Shown here piece after piece: positions 3,553 to 41,884 of a stretch of 64,000 nt of DNA. Position numbers and translations under genes: made by a program. The stretch comes from a virus, in IMG/VR virus record IMGVR_UViG_3300005805_000046, positions 64,001-128,000 of that record; one strand, given 5' to 3'. How positions within the stretch are numbered: the stretch's first letter is position 1; each line of letters opens with the position of its first letter. The notes beneath the pieces are model-generated. The model ran no database searches, was not told where the DNA came from, and saw only the letters and a program-made list of their open reading frames with translations.

Positions 3553-3594
3553 ATTGTACAACAGTGTATCGTCACTGTCAATCCTCGTCCTTGA
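3553..3594 (-). promoter_or_regulatory. overlapping sigma70-like and sigma28-like promoter
   Basis: TTGACA-17-TACAAT plus TCAA-17-GACGATAC. Confidence 0.7.
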
Positions 3595-3640
3595 AAAATT
3601 TTTGCACTCCAACCAGTTTTTCAGAAAAGTAGATTCTGGA

Positions 3641-4039
3641 CTAGTTGGACTTTCTTCGCAACCACCTAGAATAGTCTTCTGTTTTATATCCTACTTTTCT
3701 TGATATCTCATTATTACTTGTTTGGTCTATAATTAGAGAGGTTGGTAGACTTTTTATTCCCATTTTTTTCTTAAGTTCTGGATTGGCCTCTATGTCTATG
3801 GTACAGACTATGTACCTGTCTGTCTCTTGTAGATTAGGCATATCTTTTTTAAGTTGCTGACAATATCCGCACCAATCAGCACTAAATATCAAAAGTATTG
3901 GCATATCGGTTTCTTTTGCCAAAACCCTTGCTGTTTCATAGTCATTCTTAATAAGATATGAAGTTGCAGAGACTTGTGCGTTTGCTAGACTAGAAACAAA
4001 ACAACAAACCAAAGCAACAACTAGTGACAGTTTTTTCAT
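3641..4039 (-). CDS. exported thioredoxin-family protein
   Basis: Signal peptide, FSADWCGYC, LPT cis-Pro motif. Confidence 0.85.
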   Translation of the reverse strand: MKKLSLVVALVCCFVSSLANAQVSATSYLIKNDYETARVLAKETDMPILLIFSADWCGYCQQLKKDMPNLQETDRYIVCTIDIEANPELKKKMGIKSLPTSLIIDQTSNNEISRKVGYKTEDYSRWLRRKSN

Positions 4040-4287
4040 GGCTTATCTCACTAGACACAAATAGCGCCTTGAGTGCTAATATTCTCTTCTTTGTCTACAG
4101 ACATTAAACTGTCAAGAATATCTTTTAGGGTTTTATTTTCTTCTTGTAGTATTTGAATAATTTTATCGGCATCAGATAGTGCTGAACTTAAAATTTTGAC
4201 TTTTTTAGCCAACTCATCGCCTACGTAATTATTCATGCTCATGATAAACTCCTTTTAGTAGGAATATACTACATATAATTAAATACA

Positions 4288-4569
4288 CTATTTAATATCA
4301 ATTTCGACCAGAAATCGCTTTAGTTCTTTCAACTGGGAGTATGTTAAAACCAATTGATCCGAATATGGTTTTGAGTGTACCAAAACCTGCCAGATATATC
4401 TTAGTTTTTGCCATAATGACAGGCTTCTGGAGTATGGTAAGTAATAAATAGATAAATCCGCTATCTTATGTTCATGATCATACTCTATGTATAAAACCTC
4501 ACTCTTGCAATCGCATGGCACAAATACAGAGGTTGTTTTATCTTTATTGTATTTTGTTATACAGCCCAT
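4288..4569 (-). CDS. hypothetical protein
   Basis: ORF with PCDC motif. Confidence 0.55.
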   Translation of the reverse strand: MGCITKYNKDKTTSVFVPCDCKSEVLYIEYDHEHKIADLSIYYLPYSRSLSLWQKLRYIWQVLVHSKPYSDQLVLTYSQLKELKRFLVEIDIK

Positions 4570-4733
4570 GTTGATGCTATTCTCCCTGATCTTCCTTAAT
4601 CTCAGTAAATTCCTGTGGGCTTAATAGGTATGTGATCTGAGAAGATTCTCCCCAAATCTCATAGAGTTGAGAGTTTAGTCTTCTAGTAATATATCCATAT
4701 TCTGTTATAGGATGATTATTGCCGTCATTAGTA

Positions 4734-4865
4734 TTAATTAGAACCCTTACTCCTGTTGGCATTTTTTTGTTCCCCTTTTTTAAAGATTCTATCGTAGTTA
4801 TCTGCCCACGTTTTTTGATCTACGCTTTTGGGTCTGCGTTTTGATCCTTTTCCGTTTTGGCTCAT
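4734..4865 (-). CDS. small basic phage protein (GKGSKRRP...YDRIF), not in ORF track
   Basis: GGGAG RBS, 43-aa ORF. Confidence 0.55.
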   Translation of the reverse strand: MSQNGKGSKRRPKSVDQKTWADNYDRIFKKGEQKNANRSKGSN

Positions 4866-4886
4866 TTCTAATTCTCCCAATTCTTA

Positions 4887-5597
4887 TTATAAGGTCTCAG
4901 GCTCTTCCTCAAAGACATAAGACCAATAACGAGAATCAGTCTTATTCTGTTTTGCGTCCCAAAAAATTGATCTAGCGATATAAGCGGGAACACCTATTTT
5001 GCCACAATTAACACTCCAGTGTCTTTCCATCTTCTTATACAGTTCAAGTCCTTTTTTAGATTGGTATGTCAATGTTTTCATACCATACAATTCAAGCATA
5101 TGCGTATCGCCACAAAATACTCTACACTCATTAGGATGAGACTGTTCAAGGGCAAAAGATACCTTGGCAGTACCTAATCCAGATATATTATTTACGATTT
5201 GATCTCTCTTTTTGACATGATACTTCTTAGTAGTCAAATAAAAATCTTTAGGATTGGCCCAAAACTTATCTTTAAAATCCCAAATAAACTTTGTACGATT
5301 ATTATACAAGCCGCAGCCGCTATTTTTAATTTTTTCTCTCAACAGTTCTTTATCGTCCAGCCATTCGCTAAAATTTTTGATTGCATTATATCCTGCTACA
5401 TTAGATTTCCAAGTAGTATGAACGCTCATATAGGCAAAGAGGTAGCGACGAAAAATCTCATCATTATTATTTGGTCGAATACTTTCCCAATAGTCTTTAT
5501 AGGATACGACCTTATCCTTCGGGAAGTTCTTAAAAAACTCATCGGCCTTTGAGGTACTCATAACAACAGGCTTTTTCTCAATAACTGCTTCGCTCAT
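4887..5597 (-). CDS. HhH DNA glycosylase/AP lyase, 8-oxoguanine (OGG2)-like
   Basis: HhH ISGLGTAKVSFAL and catalytic D in GDTHML. Confidence 0.7.
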   Translation of the reverse strand: MSEAVIEKKPVVMSTSKADEFFKNFPKDKVVSYKDYWESIRPNNNDEIFRRYLFAYMSVHTTWKSNVAGYNAIKNFSEWLDDKELLREKIKNSGCGLYNNRTKFIWDFKDKFWANPKDFYLTTKKYHVKKRDQIVNNISGLGTAKVSFALEQSHPNECRVFCGDTHMLELYGMKTLTYQSKKGLELYKKMERHWSVNCGKIGVPAYIARSIFWDAKQNKTDSRYWSYVFEEEPETL

Positions 5598-5633
5598 GTT
5601 TGCTCCAGTTTGTGTTCCAAAGTGTATGCTACG

Positions 5634-5676
5634 ATTCTATGCTAATGGTATCGGTTTGTCAAGACCCGTTTCTTTA
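5634..5676 (-). promoter_or_regulatory. overlapping sigma70-like and sigma28-like promoter
   Basis: TTGACA-17-TAGAAT plus TAAA-17-ACCGATAC. Confidence 0.75.
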
Positions 5677-6981
5677 AACGGTTCTAGCCGATCCATGCAA
5701 AAACTTAAAAGTGGGAAAGCGTAGGCTCAAGCCTCCATCTTGGTTTTCGCTCTCACTAAAGTACTGTACAGTTATAATTTTACCAAGAATCTTTTTTGGA
5801 TGATTATAAAAGTCCTGTCTTTGTTCTATACTAAAGCCGCTTCCAACCCGAACATTATAACCTTTATGTTTAATAGTTACACAACTAAGCATAGTTTCTT
5901 CTGTTTCTTGGCCGTCTTTAACATAACGAAATGGCCCCATTTCAACATCGACTACTTCATATTCGTCATCATTGAAACTTTTAAACTTGAGAAGGTCTTT
6001 AGATCGCTTACCCTTATACGGTTCGTCTGCCCTCAACATCAGTCCCTCCCAAGAATAATCTTTAGATCTTTTAGTCCACTCAGCAAAATGGTCATCGTCT
6101 TTAATTAGTTCTTGACCAAGCACACTAAGGCAAGTACAGGTATTTTCTCTCATAACTTCTCTTAGATTATTATAGCGATAGGTATAAGTCTTATTCTTAT
6201 CTCCCTTTTTGTTATAAAATTCATCATGAGAGATCATATCAAAAATTTTATAAGATGGATTAGGAATGGTATGATCCTTCTTCTTGAGTTGCTTCATAAC
6301 TCCTTGGAAATCTTCATTACCCTCATCATCCACCAAGCACAACTCCCCATCAAAAACAACATCAGTAATACCAAGAGCCTTAATACCACCGGCCACAACA
6401 TCAAGTGTATCGAATGTTTTTCCGGTACGAGAAAAGAAAGAGGCATTACCTTCTGAGTCAACAATAGCAATACATCTAGCACCGTCAATTTTGCGACTAA
6501 CATACCAATTGTCTTTCCAATCTACAAGTTTAGGCTCATACTTATCCGCCAGAGCAACACTAAACTCTGGAATATGGTCAGGAATAGCCTTGTTGATAAT
6601 CTTGTCACCAGCACGGGTTTTCAAATCCTTATCAATGATGCAGTAAATGAGTTCTTCGTGGTCGGGGTGAAAGTCGATAAAACTATTTACTGCCCCAATA
6701 GCATCGTGACCAGTAATTTTGCGACTCTTTAGGTTATCCAAAAGATCAAAGAAATTCTTATACTGTTTTCCACGAAGTTTAGATTTCTTCTTGAGATTAT
6801 CGCTGGTTACATTATACTGCCACAAAGGATGATAGGTATATTTCAAAATTTGTTTAGTAAAAGTAGCAGCAGCAGAATTATGGTTGCAATAGTCCTCAAT
6901 GATGCCCTGCTTATCGGTAGTGCTACTGGTAGCCCTAAGATCACGCACCATACCCCAAACATAATTAAAATCGTGAACCAT
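5674..6981 (-). CDS. ATP-dependent DNA ligase
   Basis: Motif I KIDGAR, FDGEL, EGLMLR, KRSKDLLKFK, OB fold VGSGFS and LRFP. Confidence 0.95.
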   Translation of the reverse strand: MVHDFNYVWGMVRDLRATSSTTDKQGIIEDYCNHNSAAATFTKQILKYTYHPLWQYNVTSDNLKKKSKLRGKQYKNFFDLLDNLKSRKITGHDAIGAVNSFIDFHPDHEELIYCIIDKDLKTRAGDKIINKAIPDHIPEFSVALADKYEPKLVDWKDNWYVSRKIDGARCIAIVDSEGNASFFSRTGKTFDTLDVVAGGIKALGITDVVFDGELCLVDDEGNEDFQGVMKQLKKKDHTIPNPSYKIFDMISHDEFYNKKGDKNKTYTYRYNNLREVMRENTCTCLSVLGQELIKDDDHFAEWTKRSKDYSWEGLMLRADEPYKGKRSKDLLKFKSFNDDEYEVVDVEMGPFRYVKDGQETEETMLSCVTIKHKGYNVRVGSGFSIEQRQDFYNHPKKILGKIITVQYFSESENQDGGLSLRFPTFKFLHGSARTV

Positions 6982-7006
6982 CAAATTAGTCTCCTGTGTT
7001 CACAGT

Positions 7007-7048
7007 ATCTTACCATACTAGTATCGACCTGTCAATAGAGCATCTTTA
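7007..7048 (-). promoter_or_regulatory. overlapping sigma70-like and sigma28-like promoter
   Basis: TTGACA-17-TAAGAT plus TAAA-16-GTCGATAC. Confidence 0.7.
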
Positions 7049-7387
7049 GGTTTTGGGTCTTGAAAGAAAATAGTTCATAGCATTAACTATTCCCCGCAAA
7101 TCATCACCAAGTTTACCTATTCCGGTATTACATTTATCACAAATCCACCCACGGAAAGTATCGTCTTTGTGATCGTGGTCTAATACCCATTTTATTGGAG
7201 TCTGTTTACAGCACTCACAAGTCTCTGGTCTTGGTGGAGCCTCTTTATGTAATCTACCCCTAATTTTGGAATGTTTTTTAACGCACTTTTTACATCTGCT
7301 GTCCAACTTATCTTTGTACATACTGTGTTTTGAAAAACTTTTCCGATTTTTCCTTTCTCCACAATATGAACAAATTTTTCTTGGCAT
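7046..7387 (-). CDS. recombination endonuclease VII family
   Basis: LDHDH...RGWICDKCNTGIG. Confidence 0.88.
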   Translation of the reverse strand: MPRKICSYCGERKNRKSFSKHSMYKDKLDSRCKKCVKKHSKIRGRLHKEAPPRPETCECCKQTPIKWVLDHDHKDDTFRGWICDKCNTGIGKLGDDLRGIVNAMNYFLSRPKT

Positions 7388-7415
7388 CGGAACTTATTTC
7401 TTTTTAGGTTTGTCA

Positions 7416-8204
7416 CTAGGAACTAGTTCTCAAATTTTGCATAAAGCGAAATAACATTAAGTCGCAAAGTTCATTTCTTTCTTTGTCTCCATCTTCGGCA
7501 GATAGTCTCTTCATATTTTCCCATGATCTAATAAATTCTTTAGCGTGTCTTAGTGCTGATAGATTTGGTATGTTTCGATATATTGGAACATAATTATTTG
7601 CTGTTTTTTTCATTAGCGTTATGCGAAGTTCTAATGGCAAAGAGGGAAAATGAGTAATGAAACTACTATCATCTGACCGATATTCTGAGTTTGACGATAT
7701 TTCTAGTGGATACGCATTAAATTCTTTATTTGGTAGATATTTGATATAATCTTGAACATTGTTCCAGTTATTATCAATGAGTTCAATTAAAGCGGCCTGT
7801 TCCCACCAAGAATGATTTATATACTCTTCTTTATTCCATATCTTATATAATAGATCTAGGTTATAACTATTATTAGCGAATAAAATAACTCCAGCATTGA
7901 TTGCGTTAAAATCTTTGGAAATATAAATATATCTATGTGGCTCAATAACGGAGAGAATATCATAACTGCTACCGCTAATTATAGCATCAGCATCTATCCA
8001 TAGAATGTACTGATATTTCTTTTCTTCTAGATTTGTAATCAAATACTGTATTTTTGACCAAGAAGGTGGGCGTATATAGTTATCTGGAATTTTGTACGCT
8101 TCATAGTCAAACGAATGATAATTACAATAGTTGGTAATTATAGAAGAACTTATATCTATTAATGGCTTGTATGAATTATTATATGCAGTAATAACTTTAA
8201 GCAT
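7416..8204 (-). CDS. glycosyltransferase, GT34 (GMA12/MNN10)-like
   Basis: RPPSWSKI, WIDADA DxD, NAGV, WWEQAAL, FITHF. Confidence 0.8.
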   Translation of the reverse strand: MLKVITAYNNSYKPLIDISSSIITNYCNYHSFDYEAYKIPDNYIRPPSWSKIQYLITNLEEKKYQYILWIDADAIISGSSYDILSVIEPHRYIYISKDFNAINAGVILFANNSYNLDLLYKIWNKEEYINHSWWEQAALIELIDNNWNNVQDYIKYLPNKEFNAYPLEISSNSEYRSDDSSFITHFPSLPLELRITLMKKTANNYVPIYRNIPNLSALRHAKEFIRSWENMKRLSAEDGDKERNELCDLMLFRFMQNLRTSS

Positions 8205-8370
8205 TATTCTAGTTACTATGTTTTTTTCATCTTCTTCTCTAGTCTTTTCATCTTCTTTTCTAGTTTCTTTAGGTATTCCATTTCTTCTTCATGGAATTCC
8301 TTGTTTTCTTTTTCTATCTTTTTGAATATTTTTTTCCAGAATTTCATATTATATTCTCCTTGTTTTTAAG

Positions 8371-8724
8371 TGGAGGCGGCGGCATCGAAGCCGCGTCCTA
8401 GTAATACCGTTTTGATCTTTTCTACAAGTTTATTTTGTTCATAAATTAAGCGAAATTACAGAACAAACAAGACTTATTTCGCCTTACCAACTGCTCTTAA
8501 CCTACAACCCGCTGGATATTGTAAGTGCAGAGGGATTTAACGACAGACTTTTGATCGCTACCCTCATTCGCAATCGCAGTCTGTTACTGCCTGTTTTTAT
8601 TAGGCAGCAAGGGCTAACTGAGTTGTGCCAGTTAAAGCATTTGATATGATGATTAAAGAGGCCAACATATCATCCTCTACTTGCTAAAACCAATCGGTTA
8701 TTATAGTCGAAACCTTTCGCCCCC
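8371..8724 (-). ncRNA. ssrA: tmRNA; tag (A)GTTQLALAA
   Basis: 5' GGGGGCGAAAGGTTTCGAC, 3' T-arm and CGCCTCCA with G3:U70; tag frame 8629-8603 then TAA TAA. Confidence 0.93.
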
Positions 8725-8950
8725 AATGTATTATACTACCCCAAACTATAGTTGATTTCTGGATAATCTATAAAGATATTCTGTTTGACTCAGCCAAATA
8801 TCGTCATTTAGGGAGTATCGTCCTTCGATAATGCTATATATTTGCTTCCTTCCTCTGTAAGATAGTTTGAGCCATAGATTTTCTCCGGTTATATAACAAT
8901 ATCTCCTAGACCAAGAAAATGCTAGTTTCCAGTTTCTTTTTCTTAGTATT

Positions 8951-9154
8951 CTAGGTATCATTTCCAGCATTAATGTCTGTATTTGACAAGTTTTTAATTT
9001 CTTCCATAAGTTTTTGTAGATCATCGTCGCTAACTGGCATAATGATCCTATTTAGTTCTGATCTGAAACTCTCCATTTCTTGCCACAGCAAGATATTGAG
9101 GGTGACAGAAAAAACCAGAAATGAAAACAGGGTTGCTATAATTGTATTTTTCAT
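8951..9154 (-). CDS. small membrane protein
   Basis: N-terminal hydrophobic helix. Confidence 0.55.
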   Translation of the reverse strand: MKNTIIATLFSFLVFSVTLNILLWQEMESFRSELNRIIMPVSDDDLQKLMEEIKNLSNTDINAGNDT

Positions 9155-9156
9155 AA

Positions 9157-9232
9157 TAGGGCGTGTCTGAGTCGAACAGACCTATGAACACCTTATAAGA
9201 GTGTCGGATGCAACCGGCTTACCTTACGCCCC
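9157..9232 (-). tRNA. tRNA-Ile(TAT)
   Basis: GGGGCGT/ACGCCCT acceptor, ACACT-CTTATAA-GGTGT anticodon arm. Confidence 0.88.
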
Positions 9233-9256
9233 GTATTTTGAACTATCAACTCTTCT

Positions 9257-9291
9257 ATTCTACTATCGGCAATCGAACTGTCAACTCTTGA
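9257..9291 (-). promoter_or_regulatory. dual promoter for tRNA-Ile/tmRNA unit
   Basis: TTGACA-16-TAGAAT plus TCAA-17-GCCGATAG. Confidence 0.75.
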
Positions 9292-9601
9292 AGAAAAATT
9301 TTGAACTAAAGAACCCCAAAAACTTTCATCATAATAACAGAACTCATAATCAACCCAAAGATACTAGTAATTGTGCGAATTAGTTCAAATTTATGGTTAT
9401 GATGGTCTACCCACAATTCAAAATTATCTCTCAGTTTTCCTTCTTTCTTTAGTCTATTCAGTCTTTTTTGACTTAGTTTTTTCATACTCTGGATTCTCTT
9501 CCAATTCTTTAATTTCCTGTTGATATTTTTCTATCTTAGATATTATCTCAGAACACTGTCTGCAACAATCCGAAAAAAGATATTCTTTTAGATGATATAT
9601 C

Positions 9602-10006
9602 TCATTCTTTAGGTTCGATATTGTTTCTTTCAGATTTTGTTTCATTGTTTAGGTCTTTGTCTTTAAGCGTTGGTTGACTTGAACAAGCCCAAAAAATCAT
9701 TTCGTTTGTTTGTTCATCCCAAGCACACTCTATGAGTCCCTTAGAAGCCAACTTTGACAAGCCTACATTATGTATCCAATCTACAATAGTGTCGAACAGA
9801 AACCCATTGGTATCTTCGTCCAGAATTGGTCTGTTTTCGGCATCATAACCAAGACAATGTTCATCCAATAAATTATTGATTTGTCCAATACTTATATAAT
9901 CATCTAGGTTGTCGTTATTCTCTTGAGATATAAAATCCCCGGCCGCTTTCCTCATTTGAGTAGCATAGCCTTCAATATCGTGTATAGCGTAAAAATGGTT
10001 GTTCAT
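9602..10006 (-). CDS. hypothetical protein
   Basis: ORF in operon. Confidence 0.6.
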   Translation of the reverse strand: MNNHFYAIHDIEGYATQMRKAAGDFISQENNDNLDDYISIGQINNLLDEHCLGYDAENRPILDEDTNGFLFDTIVDWIHNVGLSKLASKGLIECAWDEQTNEMIFWACSSQPTLKDKDLNNETKSERNNIEPKE

Positions 10007-10013
10007 ATATGTA

Positions 10014-10349
10014 CTACTTGATAAATTTATTTACACCTTTTGTGTCCCGATTCTCATTCAGTCTGTCAAATAGTCTGTTTAAGCATTGTTGCATTGTGTG
10101 TTGTCCGCGAGGAAGCCACCTAGTATCATCATACAAAGAGGTTGTGATTTGTGGAATCCAATGTTGGTAAGCCACTTCAAACTCTTCTGGAAAATAATGC
10201 TTTAGTATTCTTTCTATATGGAATACAGAATTACTGATCTCGTCTCTATGATCTAGCAGTTTATTTAACTGATGTTTCTGTTCTGGGGTAAAACTCACGA
10301 TACTGGTTCCTTTGGCTTTAATTTCATCATTTTGTGCTTGGTTTTCCAA
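10014..10349 (-). CDS. hypothetical protein
   Basis: ORF in operon. Confidence 0.5.
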   Translation of the reverse strand: MENQAQNDEIKAKGTSIVSFTPEQKHQLNKLLDHRDEISNSVFHIERILKHYFPEEFEVAYQHWIPQITTSLYDDTRWLPRGQHTMQQCLNRLFDRLNENRDTKGVNKFIK

Positions 10350-10708
10350 ACGCCTGTTTCTTTATTTTGAATATCTCCATTCATCCAAATATGACAAAAT
10401 CCTGCTTGCTTATCAATACCCCATGCGAGAATACCGTTTTCGTCTACTTTTTCCACAACAAAACGCCCGCGATAACCCATTGGAATGAATTCGCCCCTAC
10501 TTACATAAAACGGGCCACCGGCAACCTTAACCCTATCACCCTTAACCAATTCTCTCCAATTAAAGTCTCGGATAATCTTTGTGTTTTTAGACTCCTTGCT
10601 CTTTGCCTTAAAAACAAATGGATGATTACAATTCTTGCACATATATGCACGGGGGCCGGTTACAGTGCCGCATTTTTCGCAAGCCTTCTTACCTTTTCCA
10701 AGACCCAT
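10295..10708 (-). CDS. zinc-ribbon plus SH3-like protein
   Basis: CEKC...CKNC; AGGAG RBS. Confidence 0.65.
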   Translation of the reverse strand: MGLGKGKKACEKCGTVTGPRAYMCKNCNHPFVFKAKSKESKNTKIIRDFNWRELVKGDRVKVAGGPFYVSRGEFIPMGYRGRFVVEKVDENGILAWGIDKQAGFCHIWMNGDIQNKETGVWKTKHKMMKLKPKEPVS

Positions 10709-10747
10709 TGTAAAATCTCCTGAGTGTGAAATTGTCGTTACATGGTA

Positions 10748-10788
10748 AGTATAACACAGTTATCGGCATTGTCAAGCCGCGGTCTTTA
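10748..10788 (-). promoter_or_regulatory. overlapping sigma70-like and sigma28-like promoter
   Basis: TTGACA-16-TATACT plus TAAA-17-GCCGATAA. Confidence 0.8.
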
Positions 10789-11220
10789 GGAATTTCTGTG
10801 AGCCTCACAACGAGTTGAAATCCAGCCGTCTTTATTGGGTTCTCCTTTGTTGCCACAAACGTCACAAATCTTATAACTAATTGCTTCTGCCATGCTAACT
10901 AAACCCTCTATATATTCATCGCCACCACTAAAATAGACTCTAAGACCACCATATTTTTCTTTGATTTGGTCAAATTTTACGGGAAAATAGTCTATATCTT
11001 CCTTGTCATTTTGTGTTCCGACTTTATTTCTAATCCGTATTCTTTCTGATATATTTTCTTCATGCTGTTTAATCATCCAACAAAGAGAAGATAGAATGTC
11101 ATACCAACCTTCCCCGCACTCTATGCCAAAACACATAGGGCTTTCCATAGGAGTCTTGTCTTTATTGAAAAAAAGTTGCGGATATTTTTCGTATAACTGA
11201 TTTTGTAATTCGCTGTTCAT
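10786..11220 (-). CDS. conserved phage protein (QIKEKYGGLR family)
   Basis: ECGEGW, QIKEKYGGLRVY, CDVCG...GWI.T.C..H. Confidence 0.75.
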   Translation of the reverse strand: MNSELQNQLYEKYPQLFFNKDKTPMESPMCFGIECGEGWYDILSSLCWMIKQHEENISERIRIRNKVGTQNDKEDIDYFPVKFDQIKEKYGGLRVYFSGGDEYIEGLVSMAEAISYKICDVCGNKGEPNKDGWISTRCEAHRNS

Positions 11221-11673
11221 AGTCTTTTTTGTTCTTCTGATTTATAATCCGGTTCTGGTACAATAGTGAGTTTACCTGGACTATAGTGACAAAAGTAACT
11301 TTGCTTAATCTTTCGTTTAATTAAATTGTTTTCTTCGATTTCAACATAGACATTAATGCGATAACGATTTTCAAATACATTAATAATTCTAGTCATCAAA
11401 TAGTGTTTAGGTTTATTTACCTGCTTAAATAGAAGGTGTTCAATCTCCAAATCCATTAAGAGTTCTCCTCAAAAATCTTTTCAATATTAGTAATCAATAC
11501 CAGACGATCATCGCCCCTACTGTCGCTGACGTAATAAGTGTCACAGACAAATTCATCGCCCGTGTCGGCATCGTGTACTAACACTGGTCTGCTCCAATCA
11601 AAAGTTCCTACTGCATTAATATTGTTTGCTCTTTCGTTCAGAAAATTATATAAATCAAGCCAAGTCATTTGAT

Positions 11674-11892
11674 TCATCTTCCTCTCCTATTTGCTCTATC
11701 AAGAATACGGATGGTTTCTTTAGCATTACTTGGAACCATCACTAAACTTGGTGCTGTTTTGTGTCCCCAGTCCATAAAGCCAACAGCCTTATTTTCTACA
11801 CTACATTCCTTACAGATAATTTTGCGACCCGTTTCCGATAGGAACTCATACCGATCAATACCGACGCAACTTTTGCAATAAATACAGTTCAT
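11674..11892 (-). CDS. DksA-like zinc-finger protein
   Basis: CIYC...RYEFL...CKEC. Confidence 0.55.
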   Translation of the reverse strand: MNCIYCKSCVGIDRYEFLSETGRKIICKECSVENKAVGFMDWGHKTAPSLVMVPSNAKETIRILDRANRRGR

Positions 11893-11912
11893 AGCAACCT
11901 CCGTTAATCGGA

Positions 11913-12371
11913 TTATACCATCATCATCGGCACTGTCAACGCTCCCGCTTCAATCGAATATCCAAAACTGTCGATAAATTGTCCGCTATCTGTGCTATAA
12001 AAAACATTATTTAGTCCTACAGCACTTAACAGTTTGTCACAATTTTCGCAAGGCTTACTTCCTAAAATAAGTCCTTTTCTATTAATACGCATAACAACAA
12101 TAGACCAACTAGGATCAATGGAGTTATACATATCAAGTAATTTAGAAATAAGATGAGATTCAGCATGGACAAATGGGTATTCCTTATACTTTGGTAAATT
12201 AAACTGCTCACCTATTCTGTAGGCTCTGGTATTGGTTTTGATCGGGTTGTTTTTGCTGAAACATATCATTTTCTGTCCATCAAAAGCAGCAGCATAATGA
12301 TAGCACCTAATTAGAGGACTAGGGTTCCAGTTCGCATATGCTTTACGAATAGTCTTATTAATAATTTTCAT
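11913..12371 (-). CDS. cytidine/deoxycytidylate deaminase-fold protein
   Basis: HAE and SKPCENC zinc motifs. Confidence 0.8.
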   Translation of the reverse strand: MKIINKTIRKAYANWNPSPLIRCYHYAAAFDGQKMICFSKNNPIKTNTRAYRIGEQFNLPKYKEYPFVHAESHLISKLLDMYNSIDPSWSIVVMRINRKGLILGSKPCENCDKLLSAVGLNNVFYSTDSGQFIDSFGYSIEAGALTVPMMMV

Positions 12372-12515
12372 TTTATTTCGTAGCCAACATATACAAGCCG
12401 CAATTAGCAAAAGAATACCCAGCATAGGCTATGCCAAGCCCAATATTCCCCTTATAAAATTGCTCTATACTAACATAAGCGTAAACACAGCCAGTTAATG
12501 CTATAAGCCATCCAC

Positions 12516-13430
12516 TCATGCTAATACTCCTTTACAAATTTCTTCGTGCTTCTCTATGGCGTAGTCTTTGGCTTTTAGTTCCATATCTACATCAAAATCT
12601 AATCCATATGTCTCAAACTTATTATAGGCATAGTCTGCATGGGCTCTAGGATTATTGCCCTCTTTTGATTCACTATAATGAAATAGCGGCTTGCGTCCAT
12701 GCCAAGTATCGTGACAGGCAGAAATAGCAGTATTTTCATTAAGCATATCAGAGTGGCATTTGTGATGTAGATAGTCGAACGTGATAGGGATATTGGTTTT
12801 TGGATGAAAATGAGTGATTAGTTCACGAACACTCCAGCAATTCAACTTGTCATCATTTTCAATAACAAGTCTTGCCTTGCAGTTATCGTCTAATTTGTTA
12901 AAGTTTCGTTTAAATCTTTCAATAATTTCATCATACGTTCCATTTTTATTGTGAACATGAATATTCATGGGGCTATTATAATTGGCTGGAAGGCCAATTC
13001 TATCGAAGAAACTACTATAAAAGTTTAGTTCTGTGATAGTTTTTTCTACTGCTTTTTCGTTCGTAGAAGCAAGAACATTAAACTCTGATGGATGACAGGA
13101 TACGCGAACGCCAGTATTTTTAATGGTTTGTTCAATGTTATCCATTTCGTCTTGAACATCTTCATAATTTGGTAAATCTTCTAATGAGATATTGGCCTCA
13201 TCAAAAGTGATAAGAGGAAATAGATCGCTACTAACTCTGTAAGCGTAGCCATTATCTCCGCAAAATTTGATTGTTTCATTGGTTACAACCATGTTATTAT
13301 GGATACGATCACCAAGGACACTCAACGCTTCCTCTCTTGGTAGAGAGGAAAAACGCTTATAGGTCATAGTTTGAAATCCATGACCCTGTTCCTTAAGTTT
13401 TAAAGATATACAGCACAGACCGTAAGCCAT
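12516..13430 (-). CDS. uvsE: UV damage endonuclease
   Basis: YRVSSDLFP, SCHPSEF, IENDD, FDYLHH, HYSE, HADY, ELKAKD. Confidence 0.93.
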   Translation of the reverse strand: MAYGLCCISLKLKEQGHGFQTMTYKRFSSLPREEALSVLGDRIHNNMVVTNETIKFCGDNGYAYRVSSDLFPLITFDEANISLEDLPNYEDVQDEMDNIEQTIKNTGVRVSCHPSEFNVLASTNEKAVEKTITELNFYSSFFDRIGLPANYNSPMNIHVHNKNGTYDEIIERFKRNFNKLDDNCKARLVIENDDKLNCWSVRELITHFHPKTNIPITFDYLHHKCHSDMLNENTAISACHDTWHGRKPLFHYSESKEGNNPRAHADYAYNKFETYGLDFDVDMELKAKDYAIEKHEEICKGVLA

Positions 13431-13451
13431 AGATTCTCCTAAGATAGCATC

Positions 13452-13491
13452 AGTATACTAGACTATCGGCATGTGTCAAGACGATTCTTGA
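13452..13491 (-). promoter_or_regulatory. overlapping sigma70-like and sigma28-like promoter
   Basis: TTGACA-16-TATACT plus TCAA-17-GCCGATAG. Confidence 0.75.
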
Positions 13492-14099
13492 GTTTTTTCG
13501 TATTCTTGCAGGAGTGCCGCTCTCATTGATTCGGAAATACTACCAGAGTCTAGATAATAGTCCAGACTGGTATTGAATGTATTGGGCATATGAGATAAAA
13601 CCCTATCGGAATATATTGGGTTTTTTGGTCTTTTTCGTAAAGAACGATTTATGTGATAATGAAGCAAATATGCGTTAACAGCACGAATATACTTATCAAC
13701 ACTTACATCCTCTATAGGATTATTCTGTAGCAATCTTAGCGCTTTATTCTCGCAATCATGTTCTAGTTCTAGAATATCATGAAGACTTTGGTTCAATTCT
13801 TCATCAGTATAATTAGATTCAGGCTTGTCTATCCACTCAAATAAAGTGTCGTATGTTAGTAGTGATCTATCCCACAAATCACGATTATTTTTCCATTGTA
13901 GGTAGTGACAATACTCATGTAAGAATACTTCAAAACCCATATCGTGATCTAAAGCAACAACCAATTCTTTCTCTCCTTCTTCTGCACCAAACCATCCTCC
14001 GTAGCCATCCAATTCCTTTTTTCTATGTATCAATACAGAAAATCCATTGGCTAGAAGTTCTCTTGTGCATTTCGTGATAAAGTTTAATTTGGTATCCAT
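13476..14099 (-). CDS. zincin-type metallopeptidase (HExxH)
   Basis: FLHEYCH and downstream ELEHDCE. Confidence 0.6.
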   Translation of the reverse strand: MDTKLNFITKCTRELLANGFSVLIHRKKELDGYGGWFGAEEGEKELVVALDHDMGFEVFLHEYCHYLQWKNNRDLWDRSLLTYDTLFEWIDKPESNYTDEELNQSLHDILELEHDCENKALRLLQNNPIEDVSVDKYIRAVNAYLLHYHINRSLRKRPKNPIYSDRVLSHMPNTFNTSLDYYLDSGSISESMRAALLQEYEKTQESS

Positions 14100-14407
14100 G
14101 CTATTTATCTGTAGGTTTTTCTTTGTTCGTAATAGTAATACTAATTTTATTGTCTTTATAAATAGAATATAATAGGCAGGTCGTTAAGCAAATCAAAGGG
14201 ATAAATACCAGTAGTCCTAAAAACAAAAATACAATAAACAACAATAAACAAATATCTGCCAAGCCCATAGTTATCTCCTGTTATTTTTTTCTATAAAATC
14301 TGCTAATCTGAATATAATCAATGCTGTTGTAAACAGAACCATACCTACCGATACTATAATTAGTGGGGCCATGAACAGAATATCGGTATAGTTTTCAAAT
14401 CTAAGGA

Positions 14408-15043
14408 CTACCATGCCAAAGCCTCCGCTATTGTTGGAAATTGTTGTTTAAAAATTTCTTTAGCATCATTGGCTATCGTCATATGTTCTTTTTGGGTGCC
14501 ATGAGCAGCCCTAAGATTGATATAATGAATCCATGACCGAACACTACCGCTCATATAAAGCCTTGTTGGTGTTGCTAACGGTAGTATAAATCTAGCACAC
14601 TCTTTAGCAATTCCGTCTGCTATCATCCCGTCATAAATAGACTTTGCCTTGGCAAAATGCTCCCTTATCTTTGAGTTCCACTTAGACTTAATCTCATCAC
14701 TAATGTCGTTAATACTATTTTGACGATTTTTAGTGTCTTGCCTTCTTAATTCAAACAGAGGAATATCTTCTGCTAAAAGAGTTGCATCTGCATATCTTTG
14801 ACTAAATTCTTGGAAGGTAAAACTTCTGTGTCTTAAGATTTGAGCAGCGATGCCTCTGGTGGTTTCTATTTGAAGAGTCATAAAAGCCTGTTCAAATATA
14901 GACCAGTGCTGATGATCTATACAATACTTCAATAGTTTGCTGTAGTTTTGATTGTCTTGATTAGAAGGGTTGCTAACCCTAGCACAATAAGATATGAGTT
15001 TTTCTGCGTCTGGGGTGGCACCGATAAATTTTACTGAGTTCAT
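14408..15043 (-). CDS. thyX: FAD-dependent thymidylate synthase
   Basis: HWSIFE, QILRHRSFTFQEFSQRY, KECARFILP. Confidence 0.96.
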   Translation of the reverse strand: MNSVKFIGATPDAEKLISYCARVSNPSNQDNQNYSKLLKYCIDHQHWSIFEQAFMTLQIETTRGIAAQILRHRSFTFQEFSQRYADATLLAEDIPLFELRRQDTKNRQNSINDISDEIKSKWNSKIREHFAKAKSIYDGMIADGIAKECARFILPLATPTRLYMSGSVRSWIHYINLRAAHGTQKEHMTIANDAKEIFKQQFPTIAEALAW

Positions 15044-15206
15044 TTAGATTCCCTATTTTTGAAAATATCTTGTTATTTTTTCCCATGCTGGCTTAAAAAA
15101 ATAGACAGCAACAAACCCAATAATCCCGTTGATAGCAGAAGATAGTATGCTGGTGATGGTTAATGCTGGCAGGCATTGTATTTTATTGTCTTTGCTAGAC
15201 TGTTTA

Positions 15207-15461
15207 TCAGTAGTCCGACACATTAAACTTTCCTATTGTTTTAGATTCTTGAAAGACTGTCTGATGCTCTGCCCATTTATTATTAGTAATACTATTATAG
15301 ATATCTTTCGCAAGTTTACTAACGCTTAATGAAACGCCGCTTACTTGAGGATCATCTACTTTAGACCAATAATACGAATGTCCATTAACACTATCGTCTT
15401 TTTCCTTAACCGTTTCGTACCCCTGATCCTTTGCCCACTTTTTTATTTCTGACCAGAGCAT
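15207..15461 (-). CDS. hypothetical protein
   Basis: AGGGAG RBS, MLWSEIKK start. Confidence 0.6.
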   Translation of the reverse strand: MLWSEIKKWAKDQGYETVKEKDDSVNGHSYYWSKVDDPQVSGVSLSVSKLAKDIYNSITNNKWAEHQTVFQESKTIGKFNVSDY

Positions 15462-20614: not shown

Positions 20615-20655
20615 AGCATAACTCACTTATCGGCTTTTGTCAAGAGCCACCTTTA
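20615..20655 (-). promoter_or_regulatory. overlapping sigma70-like and sigma28-like promoter
   Basis: TTGACA-17-TATGCT plus TAAA-17-GCCGATAA. Confidence 0.75.
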
Positions 20656-22663: not shown

Positions 22664-22692
22664 TTATCGGCCAATTACCACCAGATACTTTA
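22664..22692 (-). promoter_or_regulatory. sigma28-like promoter without internal TTGACA
   Basis: TAAAG...(17)...GCCGATAA; separate TTGACA-17-TATACT just downstream. Confidence 0.65.
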
Positions 22693-26257: not shown

Positions 26258-26357
26258 CTCATTGCCCTTTCGTGTTATCGTACTTCGTTCAACTCCACTT
26301 ATTCTACAGTATGTTATCGGCTTGTCAACAGGAAATCTTGCGAAAAAATTTTCTCGC

Positions 26358-27201: not shown

Positions 27202-27253
27202 AAACTCACTCCTTTCTAATTCTAGAATACACCAAATGGGTCAACTTGTCAAG

Positions 27254-27583: not shown

Positions 27584-27740
27584 TCTGTTAATTTTCTTCC
27601 ATATTGATTTGAGAATATCCTGTGATCATACCTAGTCCAATAATAATAATAAATAAAGTTGACAAATTCGCTATTCTCCAAGGTGCGGGTCGATCCTATA
27701 TCAGTATACAGCAGTCTCCACAGTTGTCAAACATACACAG

Positions 27741-28594: not shown

Positions 28595-28789
28595 CTACAT
28601 ATCATACTCTTGCTGCCAGCCCCTGTCAATGTCTCGTCGTGTTCGCTGTCGCTTGGGCCTGCTGTCCATAGTAGTATCCCGATACTCCTTGTGTCCCGTA
28701 GGAGCCTCCCAAGGCTGCTTGACCTTGACTTTGATCTTGCCGTACTTGCGGCGTGGTCGGGTATCGTCGTTGTTGTGGAGCGTAATCAT
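28595..28789 (-). CDS. small basic protein (RPKRQRTR), overlapped by upstream ORF
   Basis: Protein-like basic sequence in an alternative frame. Confidence 0.5.
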   Translation of the reverse strand: MITLHNNDDTRPRRKYGKIKVKVKQPWEAPTGHKEYRDTTMDSRPKRQRTRRDIDRGWQQEYDM

Positions 28790-28994: not shown

Positions 28995-29062
28995 TCTTTC
29001 TCCCTTGCGTCTGATGAGCATACCATAGTTATCGGTAGTTGTCCACCCATTCTTTAGTTTTT

Positions 29063-29988: not shown

Positions 29989-30696
29989 CTAGTGAGCGGG
30001 AAACAGTACGTTAGCCAAACCCTTGACGCACATATCACAACTTATACTATCTTTCGTACCGGTGCAAGTGATAACCGAACGACCGCGACGAATTTCTGGA
30101 CAAGTCACAAACTTCTCACCGTTCAGCACGACCAGTTTGGGCAACGCTTGCCGCCAAGCGTCGGCCTTAGCCTTGTTCTTTGGTCGCTTCGGGGCAATTT
30201 TCATATCGCTATCGCACCACGCAAACAACTTGAAGCCTTGATTCTTAGCCTCATTCATATCGTTATCGTCGTGAACACTAGCATAGACTGCCATATACTT
30301 TTCCAGAGCCACGAGCCGACTATCGTAGATATGAGTATAGAACCACATATCGGGCAGACTATCGCCACTAGCAAGAATACTCTCGCAAGCCCACGTTACA
30401 TTATCAACGTAGTCTGTGTCAAGTTCACCATTGAGAAACCAATCGCCACGTTCATGCCAGCGGATAGATTTCTCACGCTTTTTTGCGTCAAGAATCATAG
30501 CACGGATTTTGTTTTTCTCCGTGATTACGTTAGCAAAACCAGCGACACGGGCGTTTTTGTACTGCCGTTCAGTACCTTCGGCATAACAGCCGTTTCCGAG
30601 ATAATCGCAATCGCTTGGGCAAGTATCGCCAACCGGACGCGAAACCACAATGCAACCCTTACCCAACTTATCATTACCGTCTGCGGTTTTCATCAT
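29989..30696 (-). CDS. GP88-like Cys-rich protein
   Basis: GNDKLG, TCPSDC...GCYA, IRWHERGDW, WFYTH, C-terminal CxxC. Confidence 0.7.
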   Translation of the reverse strand: MMKTADGNDKLGKGCIVVSRPVGDTCPSDCDYLGNGCYAEGTERQYKNARVAGFANVITEKNKIRAMILDAKKREKSIRWHERGDWFLNGELDTDYVDNVTWACESILASGDSLPDMWFYTHIYDSRLVALEKYMAVYASVHDDNDMNEAKNQGFKLFAWCDSDMKIAPKRPKNKAKADAWRQALPKLVVLNGEKFVTCPEIRRGRSVITCTGTKDSISCDMCVKGLANVLFPAH

Positions 30697-30775
30697 TCTT
30701 CTCCTAGCGTGTCTGATGATTCTACACTAGGTTATCGGTACTGTCAAGGCATTTTCTTGAAGAAATTATTTTTGA

Positions 30776-30857
30776 CGCAAGGTGTTGATACTAAAGGAGT
30801 TACGTCAAGCGGGGCCGCCCCCGCTCGCCCTAAGTCTTTATCCTCAAAGAGTTTAGA
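30776..30857. repeat. 82-bp element, copy 4
   Basis: Spacers GATACTA / ATCCTCA. Confidence 0.9.
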
Positions 30858-30912
30858 AGCAGTTCACACATGCTTAAAAACTGCTCAGTAGTTTCTGCTT
30901 CGTTTTTCATAG

Positions 30913-39255: not shown

Positions 39256-39594
39256 TCATGCGTCCCCCTTCCATGCAAACGGAGAAACTTCCTCACCACA
39301 AGCCAGAATCGCACCATATTGGTGAGCCAGAGCCTCAACCCGTTCCTTTGAACCCGGCTTTCCAGCCTTTACGATCATGGTATCCTCACCACCCACAAAT
39401 CGAGGATCGGACTTCTCTTTCTTCATCTTGCCAAGATTGCGAAGTGCTTTACGATTGAACTTCAAAACTTTTTCCGAACGAATCGGGCCATACTCACCAT
39501 CCGCAAGAGAGGGTTGGTGGGGAATCGCAATTCCGAGAAAGCACATACGAGCCTGTTTCTTAGCGTTTTCGATAATATCAAATTTCTGTTTCAT
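39256..39594 (-). CDS. hypothetical protein (PGS.ERVE.L...Y motif)
   Basis: AGGGA RBS, own promoter. Confidence 0.65.
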   Translation of the reverse strand: MKQKFDIIENAKKQARMCFLGIAIPHQPSLADGEYGPIRSEKVLKFNRKALRNLGKMKKEKSDPRFVGGEDTMIVKAGKPGSKERVEALAHQYGAILACGEEVSPFAWKGDA

Positions 39595-39651
39595 GTTTTC
39601 CCTTTCGTGTTGGTCTGATTCTAGCAAAACTCTTTGGCGAATGTCAACCCC

Positions 39652-39840
39652 TTACTTCGAGGGGGTGTACGCATCCAAATCCAACTTTCGACGAATCACC
39701 CGAAGGGTCTGCAAATCCTCAATGAGCATCTTGGTCAGGCTTTCGCTTAGACCGCTTTCGACCAAAGAACTCAGGTTATCCTCACTGGTTTTCAGCAGAG
39801 CAGCCACAACGATTTCTTCACTCACAGTCAACTTTTCCAT
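39652..39840 (-). CDS. hypothetical protein
   Basis: ORF with own promoter. Confidence 0.6.
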   Translation of the reverse strand: MEKLTVSEEIVVAALLKTSEDNLSSLVESGLSESLTKMLIEDLQTLRVIRRKLDLDAYTPSK

Positions 39841-39925
39841 CTTTCACTCTCTCTTTCTTATGCTGAATTATACCTTAATTATCGTCAAAAGTCAAATGGA
39901 ATCTTTAGAAAATTCTCGGATTTTC

Positions 39926-39954
39926 CCTAAGTCCTTATTTGGTCCGGGGTTGCA
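39926..39954. repeat. solo 29-bp site with truncated linker
   Basis: CCTAAGTCCTT-ATTTGGT-CCGGGGTTGCA then TCGA. Confidence 0.6.
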
Positions 39955-40009
39955 TCGACCCGCTTCGTTTAGGTAGCACAGTGGACAGATGGTATCGTGA
40001 GAAATTGCT

Positions 40010-40091
40010 CGTAAAGCGTTGGTATCAAACAACTTACGGCAAGCGGGGCGGCGCCGGCTCGCCCTAAGTCCTTATATAGCAACCACTTAGG
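40010..40091. repeat. 82-bp element, copy 13
   Basis: Spacers GGTATCA / ATATAGC. Confidence 0.92.
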
Positions 40092-40291
40092 TTAAGAGTT
40101 AATTACCCAAGCAACCACACAACCGAAAGCAAAGGATACAGAAAGCACTACCTTATCATAAAGGTTCATTATTTCTTCCTTACTGGAAAAACAAGATCAC
40201 AAACAAACCAAGAACAACCAACACCAACAACAAATCCCACACCCATCCACATCCAATCTATATTAATATCGATCATCCGTGATTCCTTTCT

Positions 40292-40498
40292 TTAATCCTT
40301 TTTATATCCTACGAGCCACCGAGTACCATCCTCATCTGTATGGATAAATCCATTAGACTCAAATCCTGCATCATTCAATTCCTTTTCGGCCATTCTCTTA
40401 CACAGGGTATCCCCAATAGCAAGCACAGCACAAACCAATCCCATGATAATGATACCTACGACGAACAGGCAAGAGATAGCGATTAGTTGTGGGCTCAT
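40292..40498 (-). CDS. small membrane protein
   Basis: Hydrophobic N-terminal helix. Confidence 0.6.
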   Translation of the reverse strand: MSPQLIAISCLFVVGIIIMGLVCAVLAIGDTLCKRMAEKELNDAGFESNGFIHTDEDGTRWLVGYKKD

Positions 40499-40686
40499 TT
40501 GGTAAGGTTCCAAGTATAGACGTTATCGTTCACTTTCACACATCGTACATCAGAGATCGGCAAATGTCCAGTGCGAACATTAGAGCAATCCGGAAAGAAC
40601 TCTCTCACAATCTTATACGCTTCGAGCGTATTCTTAGCACGAACAAAACCAACAGCCAAACCATTCTGATAAACTTCCAAAGTCAT
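40495..40686 (-). CDS. hypothetical protein
   Basis: GAGG RBS. Confidence 0.6.
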   Translation of the reverse strand: MTLEVYQNGLAVGFVRAKNTLEAYKIVREFFPDCSNVRTGHLPISDVRCVKVNDNVYTWNLTK

Positions 40687-40785
40687 CTTCTTTTCCTCTT
40701 TCTTTCTCATACTACGATTCTACACTACTAATATCGGCTTGTCAAGCCTAGCCACATGAATTTTTTCAGATTTTTTATTTTGCGT

Positions 40786-40867
40786 TGTAAGTCTATATGT
40801 AGCATATACTTAGGTCGAATTTTGCGGCGCCGGCTCGCCCTAAGTACTTACGTAGCAACTACTTACG
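40786..40867. repeat. 82-bp element, copy 14
   Basis: Spacers ATGTAGC / ACGTAGC. Confidence 0.9.
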
Positions 40868-41021
40868 TTTACTATTCATATCCTTAAGAATAGCAACGAT
40901 CATAGCCAATTCGTTACTCGTCTGATTCGGGCTCATCGTATTCCCTTTCATCTTCTTCGAGCCAATCAGCATAATCATACAGTGGGTCAGGGCAACTCAT
41001 CTCTTTTCTCCTTTACTTCTT

Positions 41022-41057
41022 ATATCGGTATTATACAGGAAAATCTTTAGGGGTCAA
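41022..41057 (-). promoter_or_regulatory. dual promoter with reversed stagger
   Basis: TTGACC-16-TATAAT with TAAA-16-ACCGATAT. Confidence 0.7.
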
Positions 41058-41256
41058 TACTGAACATTTGTTTTTTCTAGAATAGAATCTAAATGAATTT
41101 CCCCATTCTCTACAACCCACCCATATTCCCTAGTAGGCGTATACGTCCCAAGATAATATTTCCCATCGCTATATCCCTCATACCCAGCCCCAAATCCCAT
41201 GAACGTGATAGCCAAAATCATATCGTACATTATAGCCTCTCTTTCTTATATATATA

Positions 41257-41284
41257 ATATCGGCTAATCCCCATATATACTTTA
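41257..41284 (-). promoter_or_regulatory. sigma28-like promoter without TTGACA
   Basis: TAAAG...(16)...GCCGATAT. Confidence 0.65.
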
Positions 41285-41299
41285 GAGATATTTATTGGT

Positions 41300-41381
41300 C
41301 ATAAACCCTTACTGCATAAGTACTTAGGACAAATTTTGCCCAGAGAATTCGCCCTAAGTCATTGGTATACAACAACTTATA
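41300..41381. repeat. 82-bp element, copy 15
   Basis: Spacers ACTGCAT / GGTATAC. Confidence 0.88.
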
Positions 41382-41404
41382 GCGAATATAGCCGCTACCC
41401 CCTC

Positions 41405-41593
41405 TTAGGTAGCATGGATGAACACTCGTTCATTTACGGTACGGTTGGTCAGCGTAACGATCCAGTTCCTACCGCTACCATCCTCACGCATGATGCAGTT
41501 GATAAGGCCAACGTGTACGTTACCCTTAGTATCCACAACGCTACCATACTTACCCGTACGCATCGCAGAGAGAATCTTGTCAAGGCTATTCAT
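41405..41593 (-). CDS. conserved phage protein (I.REDGSGRNW family)
   Basis: Motif, AAGGA RBS. Confidence 0.65.
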   Translation of the reverse strand: MNSLDKILSAMRTGKYGSVVDTKGNVHVGLINCIMREDGSGRNWIVTLTNRTVNERVFIHAT

Positions 41594-41884
41594 TTTCTTT
41601 TCCTTTGGGGTTGTGTGCATTGTACCAATATTCTTTTGTGTGTCAAGTCTTAGAGAATCGTACCATCACCACGAATACGATACATGATTCCACCGATACT
41701 ATACAGGCAGATACCTTCGCCCATATTCTGAACAAACGTAGCCGAATATCCGTGGCGAGCAACCAACCGGCGAATCGTATTTTGCACTTGGATCGTCATT
41801 TGCTTTCTCTCTTTCTTATGTCCCAATTATACCAATATAATCGTCAGGAGTCAAATACTATCTTTAAAATATTCTTAAATTGCT

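Follow-up and report, generated by a model that had tools for sequence, protein, structure and literature searches.

Bacteriophages are known to transcribe their genes with the housekeeping sigma factor of the host, with sigma factors of their own or with polymerases of their own. Arrangements comparable to the one described here are known from other systems. Dual control by sigma70 and by sigma28, the flagellar sigma factor also named FliA, is known for flgM, fliA and flgK of Salmonella, which have both class 2 and class 3 promoters, and for the tandem sigma66/sigma28 promoters of Chlamydia. Phage T4 offers another comparison: its early and middle promoters involve sigma appropriation by AsiA and MotA, in which sigma70 is remodelled by phage proteins and the -10 hexamer is retained. 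Here, we describe an element of the form T(A/C)AAG-N16/17-(C/T/A)CGATA(A/T/C) that occurs at about 30 early sites in the genome of an uncultured lake phage, mostly in overlap with sigma70-type promoters. The stretch of DNA analysed, called the window below, has a length of 64,000 nucleotides and corresponds to bases 64001-128000 of the 153,585-bp IMG/VR record IMGVR_UViG_3300005805_000046; coordinates refer to the window unless they are marked as genome coordinates.

The record is rated complete (CheckV). Minus-strand genes extend from about 108.5 kb down to 2 kb of the genome and plus-strand genes from 108.7 to 147.5 kb, and the terminase and other late genes lie within the plus-strand block. 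The early region comprises 58 kb of the minus strand and carries many small genes as well as nine tRNA genes and one transfer-messenger RNA (tmRNA) gene. The consensus housekeeping promoters (TTGACA-16/18-TAnnnT) lie on the minus strand only, from 48 to 106 kb of the genome; within the window, the pattern TTGACA-N15-18-TAnnnT is matched 41 times (40 on the minus strand), compared with 3.8 in shuffled sequences (maximum 9). The phage has a G+C content of 33-37%, and no DNA similarity to known phages was found. Its terminase protein is only about 25% identical to those of Bacillus phages and therefore offers no clue to the host.

A second, two-box motif accompanies these promoters. In its strict form, T[AC]AAG-N17/18-CGATA (equivalent to T[AC]AA-N16/17-xCCGATA), it is present at 20 minus-strand and 0 plus-strand sites in the window, whereas 200 Markov shuffles averaged 0.52 sites, with at most 3. 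When the spacing was varied from 10 to 27, N17 gave 7 sites, N18 gave 13 and every other length 0-2. A two-block weight matrix run over the whole genome recovered 33-35 minus-strand sites, whereas at that threshold the plus strand gave none and simulations gave 0.6; 31 of the sites lie in the window, at positions 3566-41866. All 20 strict and all 31 matrix sites are thus oriented with the coding (minus) strand. About 25 of the 31 overlap a housekeeping promoter. An earlier reading of this stretch (the original prediction) had counted some 20 or more minus-strand promoters combining TTGACA-TAnnnT with a T(A/C)AAG/CCGATA pair, and each specific point of that observation was confirmed. The 31 matrix sites are listed below. 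The register is the distance from the T of the TAAAG-type box to the C of CGATA; in class I, TTGACA is nested between the two boxes, and in class II, CGATA comes immediately after the -10 hexamer of a sigma70 promoter located farther upstream.

3566..3594, minus strand: TCAAG / ACGATAC, register 23, class I
4163..4191, minus strand: TTAAG / CCGATAA, register 23, no consensus sigma70 promoter
5648..5676, minus strand: TAAAG / CCGATAC, register 23, class I
7021..7048, minus strand: TAAAG / TCGATAC, register 22, class I
9263..9291, minus strand: TCAAG / CCGATAG, register 23, class I with shifted stagger (-35 hexamer 16 nt before CGATA)
10760..10788, minus strand: TAAAG / CCGATAA, register 23, class I
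13463..13491, minus strand: TCAAG / CCGATAG, register 23, class I
20627..20655, minus strand: TAAAG / CCGATAA, register 23, class I
22664..22692, minus strand: TAAAG / CCGATAA, register 23, followed by a separate sigma70 promoter, with TTGACA beginning 12 nt past the C of CGATA
26314..26341, minus strand: GCAAG / CCGATAA, register 22, class I
29029..29056, minus strand: TAAAG / CCGATAA, register 22, overlaps a weaker sigma70-like TGGACA-17-TATGCT
30732..30760, minus strand: TCAAG / CCGATAA, register 23, class I
31603..31630, minus strand: TCACG / CCGATAA, register 22, class I
32543..32571, minus strand: TAAAG / TCGATAA, register 23, class I with shifted stagger (-35 hexamer 15 nt before CGATA)
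32797..32824, minus strand: TCAAG / CCGATAA, register 22, class I
34419..34446, minus strand: TCAAG / CCGATAA, register 22, class I with consensus TTGACA-16-TATAAT
34759..34787, minus strand: TAAAG / ACGATAC, register 23, class I with shifted stagger (13 nt)
35882..35910, minus strand: TAAAG(TTTT) / CCGATAA, register 23, class I
36490..36518, minus strand: TAATG / TCGATAC, register 23, class I
36792..36820, minus strand: TAAAG / CCGATCT, register 23, overlaps only a weak sigma70-like TTGCAT-17-TATGAT
37412..37439, minus strand: TCAAG / CCGATCT, register 22, class I
37818..37845, minus strand: TAAAG / CCGATAA, register 22, class II (TAAAG inside the sigma70 spacer, CGATA directly after TAGAAT)
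38105..38133, minus strand: TATAG / CCGATAT, register 23, class I (TTGACT)
39061..39089, minus strand: TAAAG / CCGATGT, register 23, class I (TTGACT)
39879..39907, minus strand: TAAAG / ACGATAA, register 23, class I (TTGACT-17-TATAAT)
40266..40294, minus strand: TAAAG / TCGATAT, register 23, stand-alone
40554..40582, minus strand: TAATG / CCGATCT, register 23, overlaps a weak TGGACA-17-TACGAT
40731..40759, minus strand: TCATG / CCGATAT, register 23, class I
41022..41049, minus strand: TAAAG / CCGATAT, register 22, class II (TTGACC-16-TATAAT upstream, CGATA directly after the -10 hexamer)
41257..41284, minus strand: TAAAG / CCGATAT, register 22, stand-alone, about 30 nt before a ribosome-binding site (RBS) and ATG
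41838..41866, minus strand: TAAAG / ACGATTA, register 23, class I (TTGACT-17-TATAAT)

Class I accounts for 22 of the 31 sites and class II for 2, and 6 sites have no consensus sigma70 promoter. The upstream box has the core T[AC]A[AT]G, being TAAAG at 18 and TCAAG at 8 of the 31 sites, and its most informative positions are T, A, A and G, located 22-23 nt ahead of CGATA. In the downstream box, whose general form is (G/T)(C/T/A)CGATA(A/T/C), CGAT hardly varies; the base before it is C, T or A, often with a G in front of that base, and it is followed by A and then by A, T or C. Two complete promoter types are interleaved on the same DNA.

The second motif keeps its own spacing. When T[AC]AAG was sought upstream of all minus-strand CGATA in the genome with no spacing imposed, the offsets peaked at -23 (14 sites) and -22 (7 sites), with about one site per offset elsewhere, while the offsets of TTGACA from the same CGATA set were scattered from -8 to -16, with others at -31, -38 and -43. 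The claim that CCGATA is spaced to TAAAG or TCAAG and not to TTGACA is thereby upheld. Among the sites with both motifs, the distance from the -35 hexamer to CGATA is anticorrelated with that from TAAAG to the -35 hexamer (r = -0.98), in a scan for which the 22/23 register had been fixed beforehand; it is therefore the unconstrained histogram and the odd cases that carry the argument. Normally the -35 hexamer lies 9-11 nt before CGATA. In the three shifted cases this distance grows to 16 nt (9263-9291), 15 nt (32543-32571) and 13 nt (34759-34787), and TAAAG or TCAAG still stands 23 nt from CGATA, i.e. it tracks CGATA, not TTGACA. In the two reversed cases (37818-37845 and 41022-41049), the entire sigma70 promoter lies farther upstream and CGATA comes directly after its -10 hexamer. 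The pair also occurs with no overlapping TTGACA at 22664-22692, 41257-41284, 40266-40294, 4163-4191 and 36792-36820. Three exceptions named in the original prediction, a differing stagger at 9257-9291, a reversed order at 37818-37854 and 41022-41057, and a pair lacking TTGACA at 22664-22692 and 41257-41284, were all recovered, and the last of these has grown by three sites. The idea that T[AC]AAG is part of an UP element fixed to TTGACA was rejected, as the box follows CGATA when the stagger changes. The flanks of the sites are unrelated (mean pairwise identity 0.27 on both sides), so the sites are not recent copies of one repeat, and chance or repeat copying was discarded on these grounds together with the 20 observed sites against 0.5 in shuffles.

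The consensus of E. coli sigma28 promoters is TAAAGTTT-N11-GCCGATAA (PMC2859248). Both phage boxes fit it, the upstream one as a -35 element TAAAG(TTT) and the downstream one as a -10 element (G)CCGATAA. The canonical spacer, N11 between the octamers or TAAAG-N15-CCGATA, was not found: the phage sites have N16 or N17 only, and their register is 22 or 23 as compared with 21 nt in E. coli (T of TAAAG to C of CGATAA), in keeping with the predicted excess of 1-2 nt. A search for dyad symmetry or direct repeats within the element was negative, TAAAG and CCGATAA being neither alike nor complementary. Its asymmetry, the lack of a dyad, its orientation with the genes and its ability to stand alone argue for a promoter of an alternative sigma factor and against a repressor operator.

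The element is shared by a group of related phages. With sigB, one of two sigma-70-family proteins encoded by the phage (the other is sigA), as a probe, 139 viral contigs of about 115-240 kb and 30-38% G+C were retrieved, among them the relatives G004 and G017. In most of the complete relatives searched, one strand bears 13-25 strict sites, whereas the reversed-pattern control yields 0-4. They display the same three forms, namely a nested -35 hexamer, CGATA directly after an extended -10 element (TGGTATAATG-TCGATA) and stand-alone pairs, and the class II form is far more frequent in them than the two cases seen here. That the same forms recur with otherwise unrelated spacers indicates that the architecture is under selection. 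Two relatives are exceptions. G017 has about 30 consensus sigma70 early promoters and only 5-6 FliA-type sites. G004, a complete genome of 151,782 bp, has sigB and the heptamer GGTGTAT described below; it lacks both the TTGACA-TATAAT cluster and the FliA-type pairs, which points to a different mode of early transcription or to another kind of host.

A matching promoter class was found in cellular genomes. With enrichment defined as at least 6 copies of TAAAG-spacer-CCGATA and at least a 4-fold excess over the reversed-pattern control, 13 of 201 Planctomycetota genomes are enriched at N16/17 and 0 of 201 at the E. coli-like N14/15 spacing. The N16/17 counts, each against its control, include 21 versus 1 in G100, 15 versus 1 in G092, 12 versus 3 in G071, 11 versus 2 in both G125 and G137, 8 versus 0 in G234, and 8 versus 1 in both G149 and G117. 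Summed over the top five (G100, G092, G071, G125 and G137), the counts are 7 at N14/15, 70 at N16/17 and 8 at N18/19; these five were picked for their N16/17 excess, and the fair comparison is 13/201 with 0/201. The form with C as the second -35 base, TCAAG-N16/17-CCGATA, totals 34 versus 5 in the same five genomes, with no excess in G092 (5 versus 4), such that the A/C choice is seen in 4 of 5 genomes checked. It also appears at an apparently orthologous promoter, the one before the MotA gene of G100, which reads TAAAG in four genomes and TCAAG in a fifth. As an alternative host phylum, the Verrucomicrobiota were rejected, since just 1 of 151 genomes qualified at N16/17, with a modest excess.

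All five motif-rich genomes checked encode a FliA protein above the family cut-off. The motif stands upstream of flagellin genes in G125 and G071 (TAAAG-N17-[CT]CGATA) and in G100 (TAAAT-N16-TCGATAA), and upstream of the MotA gene in G100. The comparison with planctomycete flagellin promoters suggested in the original prediction thus showed the motif in these three genomes; two flagellin genes of Phycisphaerae have sigma54-type promoters (TGGCAC-N5-TTGC). The cellular sites are spread over many contigs of about 55% G+C and so are not mis-binned phage DNA. The boxes, odd spacing and degeneracy of the phage element thus appear to copy a cellular promoter class which, judged by position and sequence, would be the planctomycete FliA class. 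Independent support for a planctomycete link comes from a lectin-type phage protein (genome 34681-35616, minus strand), for which 70 of 77 cellular relatives belong to Planctomycetota, mostly Phycisphaerales, and a few to Verrucomicrobiota. Planctomycete hosts are touched on, only in passing, in one paper on lake phages. A separate observation concerns the leaders of many planctomycete flagellin genes, in which the RBS is immediately preceded by a short hairpin (GGCATGGATGCC type) that might be a CsrA-type site.

We favour the reading, with a probability of roughly 0.55, that the dual promoters are read by both sigma70 and FliA of the host. Strong housekeeping promoters (TTGACA-16/17-TAnAAT) would drive the 58-kb minus-strand early region, and one and the same stretch of DNA could be bound by host holoenzyme carrying sigma70 or by that carrying FliA, each transcribing the same set of early genes. 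At class I sites, transcription of the FliA type would begin about 10-13 nt before the sigma70 start, in or beside the sigma70 -10 hexamer, and at class II sites about 15-20 nt downstream of that start; a few sites would be of the FliA type only. As both holoenzymes cannot share one site, we propose that the sites are either/or entry points. It is enticing to speculate that the benefit lies in maintaining early transcription as long as free FliA is available, for instance in flagellated swarmer cells, which may be the first cells that the phage meets. In the dual sigma70/FliA wiring originally predicted, the part that stands is a second, independently spaced FliA-type element over sigma70 promoters, conserved in relatives, and the reader protein and the purpose are what we infer. 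More tentative, and in our view possible though rather doubtful, is the extension that the whole group of lake phages ties its infection programme to the flagellar checkpoint of the host. Free FliA would start the early genes and, via a promoter hidden upstream of sigB, sigB itself; the phage would thereby sense the flagellated swarmer cell, perhaps the sole adsorbable type, and run even if housekeeping transcription is low.

Several observations weigh against reading by host FliA. Only some of the G100 sites precede motility genes, the others preceding genes for PilM, polysaccharide export, a glycosyltransferase, a TPR protein and unknown genes. The G+C content of the phage is well below the approximately 55% of the one motif-rich genome sampled. 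The strict-motif excess is absent from the genomes with the closest lectin relatives (G235-G239) and from five named Phycisphaerae (G031-G035) that have FliA and flagellins, so the motif-rich planctomycetes must be a different subset; the lineage of those five, which show no strict-motif excess, was accordingly rejected as the source of the motif match. Finally, the phage has two sigma factors of its own, and a conserved copy of the motif about 220 bp upstream of sigB can also be read as autoregulation.

The two phage sigma factors, and the late heptamer that may belong to one of them, are located as follows.

44736..45461, plus strand: sigA (241 amino acids), head of the plus-strand late module, only region 2 recognisable
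genome 48180-48749 (outside the window), minus strand: sigB (189 amino acids), far end of the early region, clear region 4
49956, 52179, 55280, 58706 and 62320, plus strand: GGTGTAT ahead of late genes
genome 45640, 32022, 29705 and 25683, minus strand: GGTGTAT ahead of late genes

GGTGTAT, followed by A/T-rich sequence, lies 20-60 nt before late genes on both strands and is also found in G004 and G017. The heptamer is not enriched genome-wide, and the case for it rests on position; it is probably a -10-only late promoter for one phage sigma. The sigA family is very large and metagenomic (1809 hits), and sigA, a candidate reader of the boxes in its own right, more likely serves late promoters.

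The sigB gene has a FliA-type site of its own. A pair TCATG-N17-CCGATAA lies inside the preceding gene (genome about 48929-48957, minus strand), about 220 bp upstream of sigB, and nearly all relatives retain T[AC]A[AT]G-N17-CGATA some 210-250 bp ahead of sigB. Next to the invariant GAT, the preceding codon, for Asp, Ala, Thr or Ser, has C in the third position in 54 of 60 sequences against a background of 13%, and none of the Val, Ile or Leu codons that precede ATG or AAG has T as its last base, compared with a background of 32%. This conservation at synonymous sites reflects selection on the DNA and points to a hidden sigB promoter, which fits either autoregulation or FliA-driven expression of sigB and suggests a long-standing link between the phage group and this sigma class.

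Such a promoter is the pattern expected of an autoregulated sigma factor, and it speaks for a phage sigma, sigB or sigA, as the reader of the boxes; produced from early transcripts, this factor would take these promoters over, which would create positive feedback or free the phage from host sigma70. A FliA-like phage sigma had been offered as an alternative in the original prediction, and two sigma-70-family proteins do exist. sigB passes the superfamily cut-off, and its region 4 finds its best specific matches among WhiG/FliA models and structures. Neither protein reaches the FliA/WhiG family cut-off (TIGR02479, 189.6 bits), however, as sigB scores 27.9 and sigA 13.2 bits, compared with 222-265 bits for planctomycete FliA proteins. 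Just 51 residues of sigB, in region 4, align with planctomycete FliA in BLASTP (39% identity), and the region 4.2 recognition helix is the sigma70-like TREAIRQ, not the SESRVCQ of FliA. Foldseek with the predicted structure (predicted local distance difference test score 87) ranks WhiG at the top with an E value of about 1e-3, with SigA, RpoS and extracytoplasmic function sigmas close behind, and singles out no sigma class. In addition, the sigB segments YSYRNQCAIWAIKTY and SREAxRQ, which we take to include the region 4.2 helix, do not vary among 41 family members, including G017 with its few sites and G004, whose lack of the motif argues against sigB as the reader. Given also that the boxes, spacing and A/C degeneracy already fit a host promoter class, and that the late heptamer would account for at least one phage sigma, we regard reading by a phage sigma as unlikely.

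Still less probable is that the boxes form the operator of a non-sigma DNA-binding protein of phage or host that silences or enhances early transcription. Large phages commonly have early shut-off factors, and at class I sites, where CGATA lies in the sigma70 spacer and TAAAG just upstream of the -35 hexamer, a bound protein would occlude or contact RNA polymerase. Against this stand the two different, asymmetric boxes with neither dyad nor direct repeat, the occurrence of the same module before flagellin and motA genes in cellular genomes, and its placement downstream of the sigma70 -10 hexamer (class II) or alone directly before genes, which a promoter fits better. The least credible proposal, to which we give very little weight, makes the sites mainly a sink that titrates host FliA and switches off motility genes, with transcription as a by-product. 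Roughly 30 sites per genome, multiplied by replication, would confront host regulons of apparently tens of strict sites, but a pure decoy would not need every site to be oriented with the genes and 0 on the other strand, nor would it need stand-alone sites at promoter distance from start codons. Reading of the interleaved promoters by host sigma70 and host FliA thus remains the interpretation we prefer.

Other features of the window deserve mention. The nine tRNA genes of the early region (Leu, Ile, Lys, Trp, Ser, Asn, Gln, Thr and Arg) lie at 2578-30984 on the minus strand, and three sigma70 promoters among them (27224-27252, 27703-27730 and 28601-28629) have no FliA-type boxes. The tmRNA gene (8370-8724, minus strand) encodes the tag peptide GTTQLALAA. 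Host-like genes are found at the junction of early and late regions, within 42031-47234:

42031-43275, minus strand: S8 subtilase
43687-44292, minus strand: FkbM-type methyltransferase
46245-47234, plus strand: GDP-mannose 4,6-dehydratase

A literature search found no described phage with FliA-type early promoters, and, to our knowledge, the wiring of a whole early region to the host flagellar sigma has not been described before. If the proposed reading is correct, it would mean that a virus can gauge the developmental state of the host cell by a new route, and it would supply a sequence-only clue to the host for a large and abundant group of uncultured lake phages with genomes of 115-240 kb. 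Taken together, the phage and host data would also delineate a longer-spaced FliA promoter variant of planctomycetes.

Compared with the class 3 flagellar promoters of the sigma28 family (FliA/SigD/WhiG), the phage sites share the bipartite and asymmetric design, the TAAAG core of the -35 element, the (G)CCGATAA -10 element and the orientation with the gene; they differ from those of E. coli in the longer spacer and the A or C at the second -35 base, and from the class as a whole in standing on a phage genome before early genes, mostly in overlap with a sigma70 promoter. The planctomycete T[AC]AAG-N16/17-CCGATA class is alike in boxes, spacing, the A/C choice and a frequent preceding G or TG, whereas its members are stand-alone promoters in DNA of about 55% G+C, where dependence on FliA is again what we infer. 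As in the dual control known from Salmonella and Chlamydia, one gene could be started by the housekeeping or the flagellar sigma; there, however, the promoters are adjacent and belong to flagellar or developmental genes, and in the phage they are interleaved base by base at about 25 of 31 sites. With T4, the phage has in common a second element near -30 over sigma70-type promoters, by which the same genes may be read in two ways. The second element in T4 works on a remodelled sigma70, whereas the one described here comprises both the -35 and the -10 box of a different sigma class and can also occur on its own.

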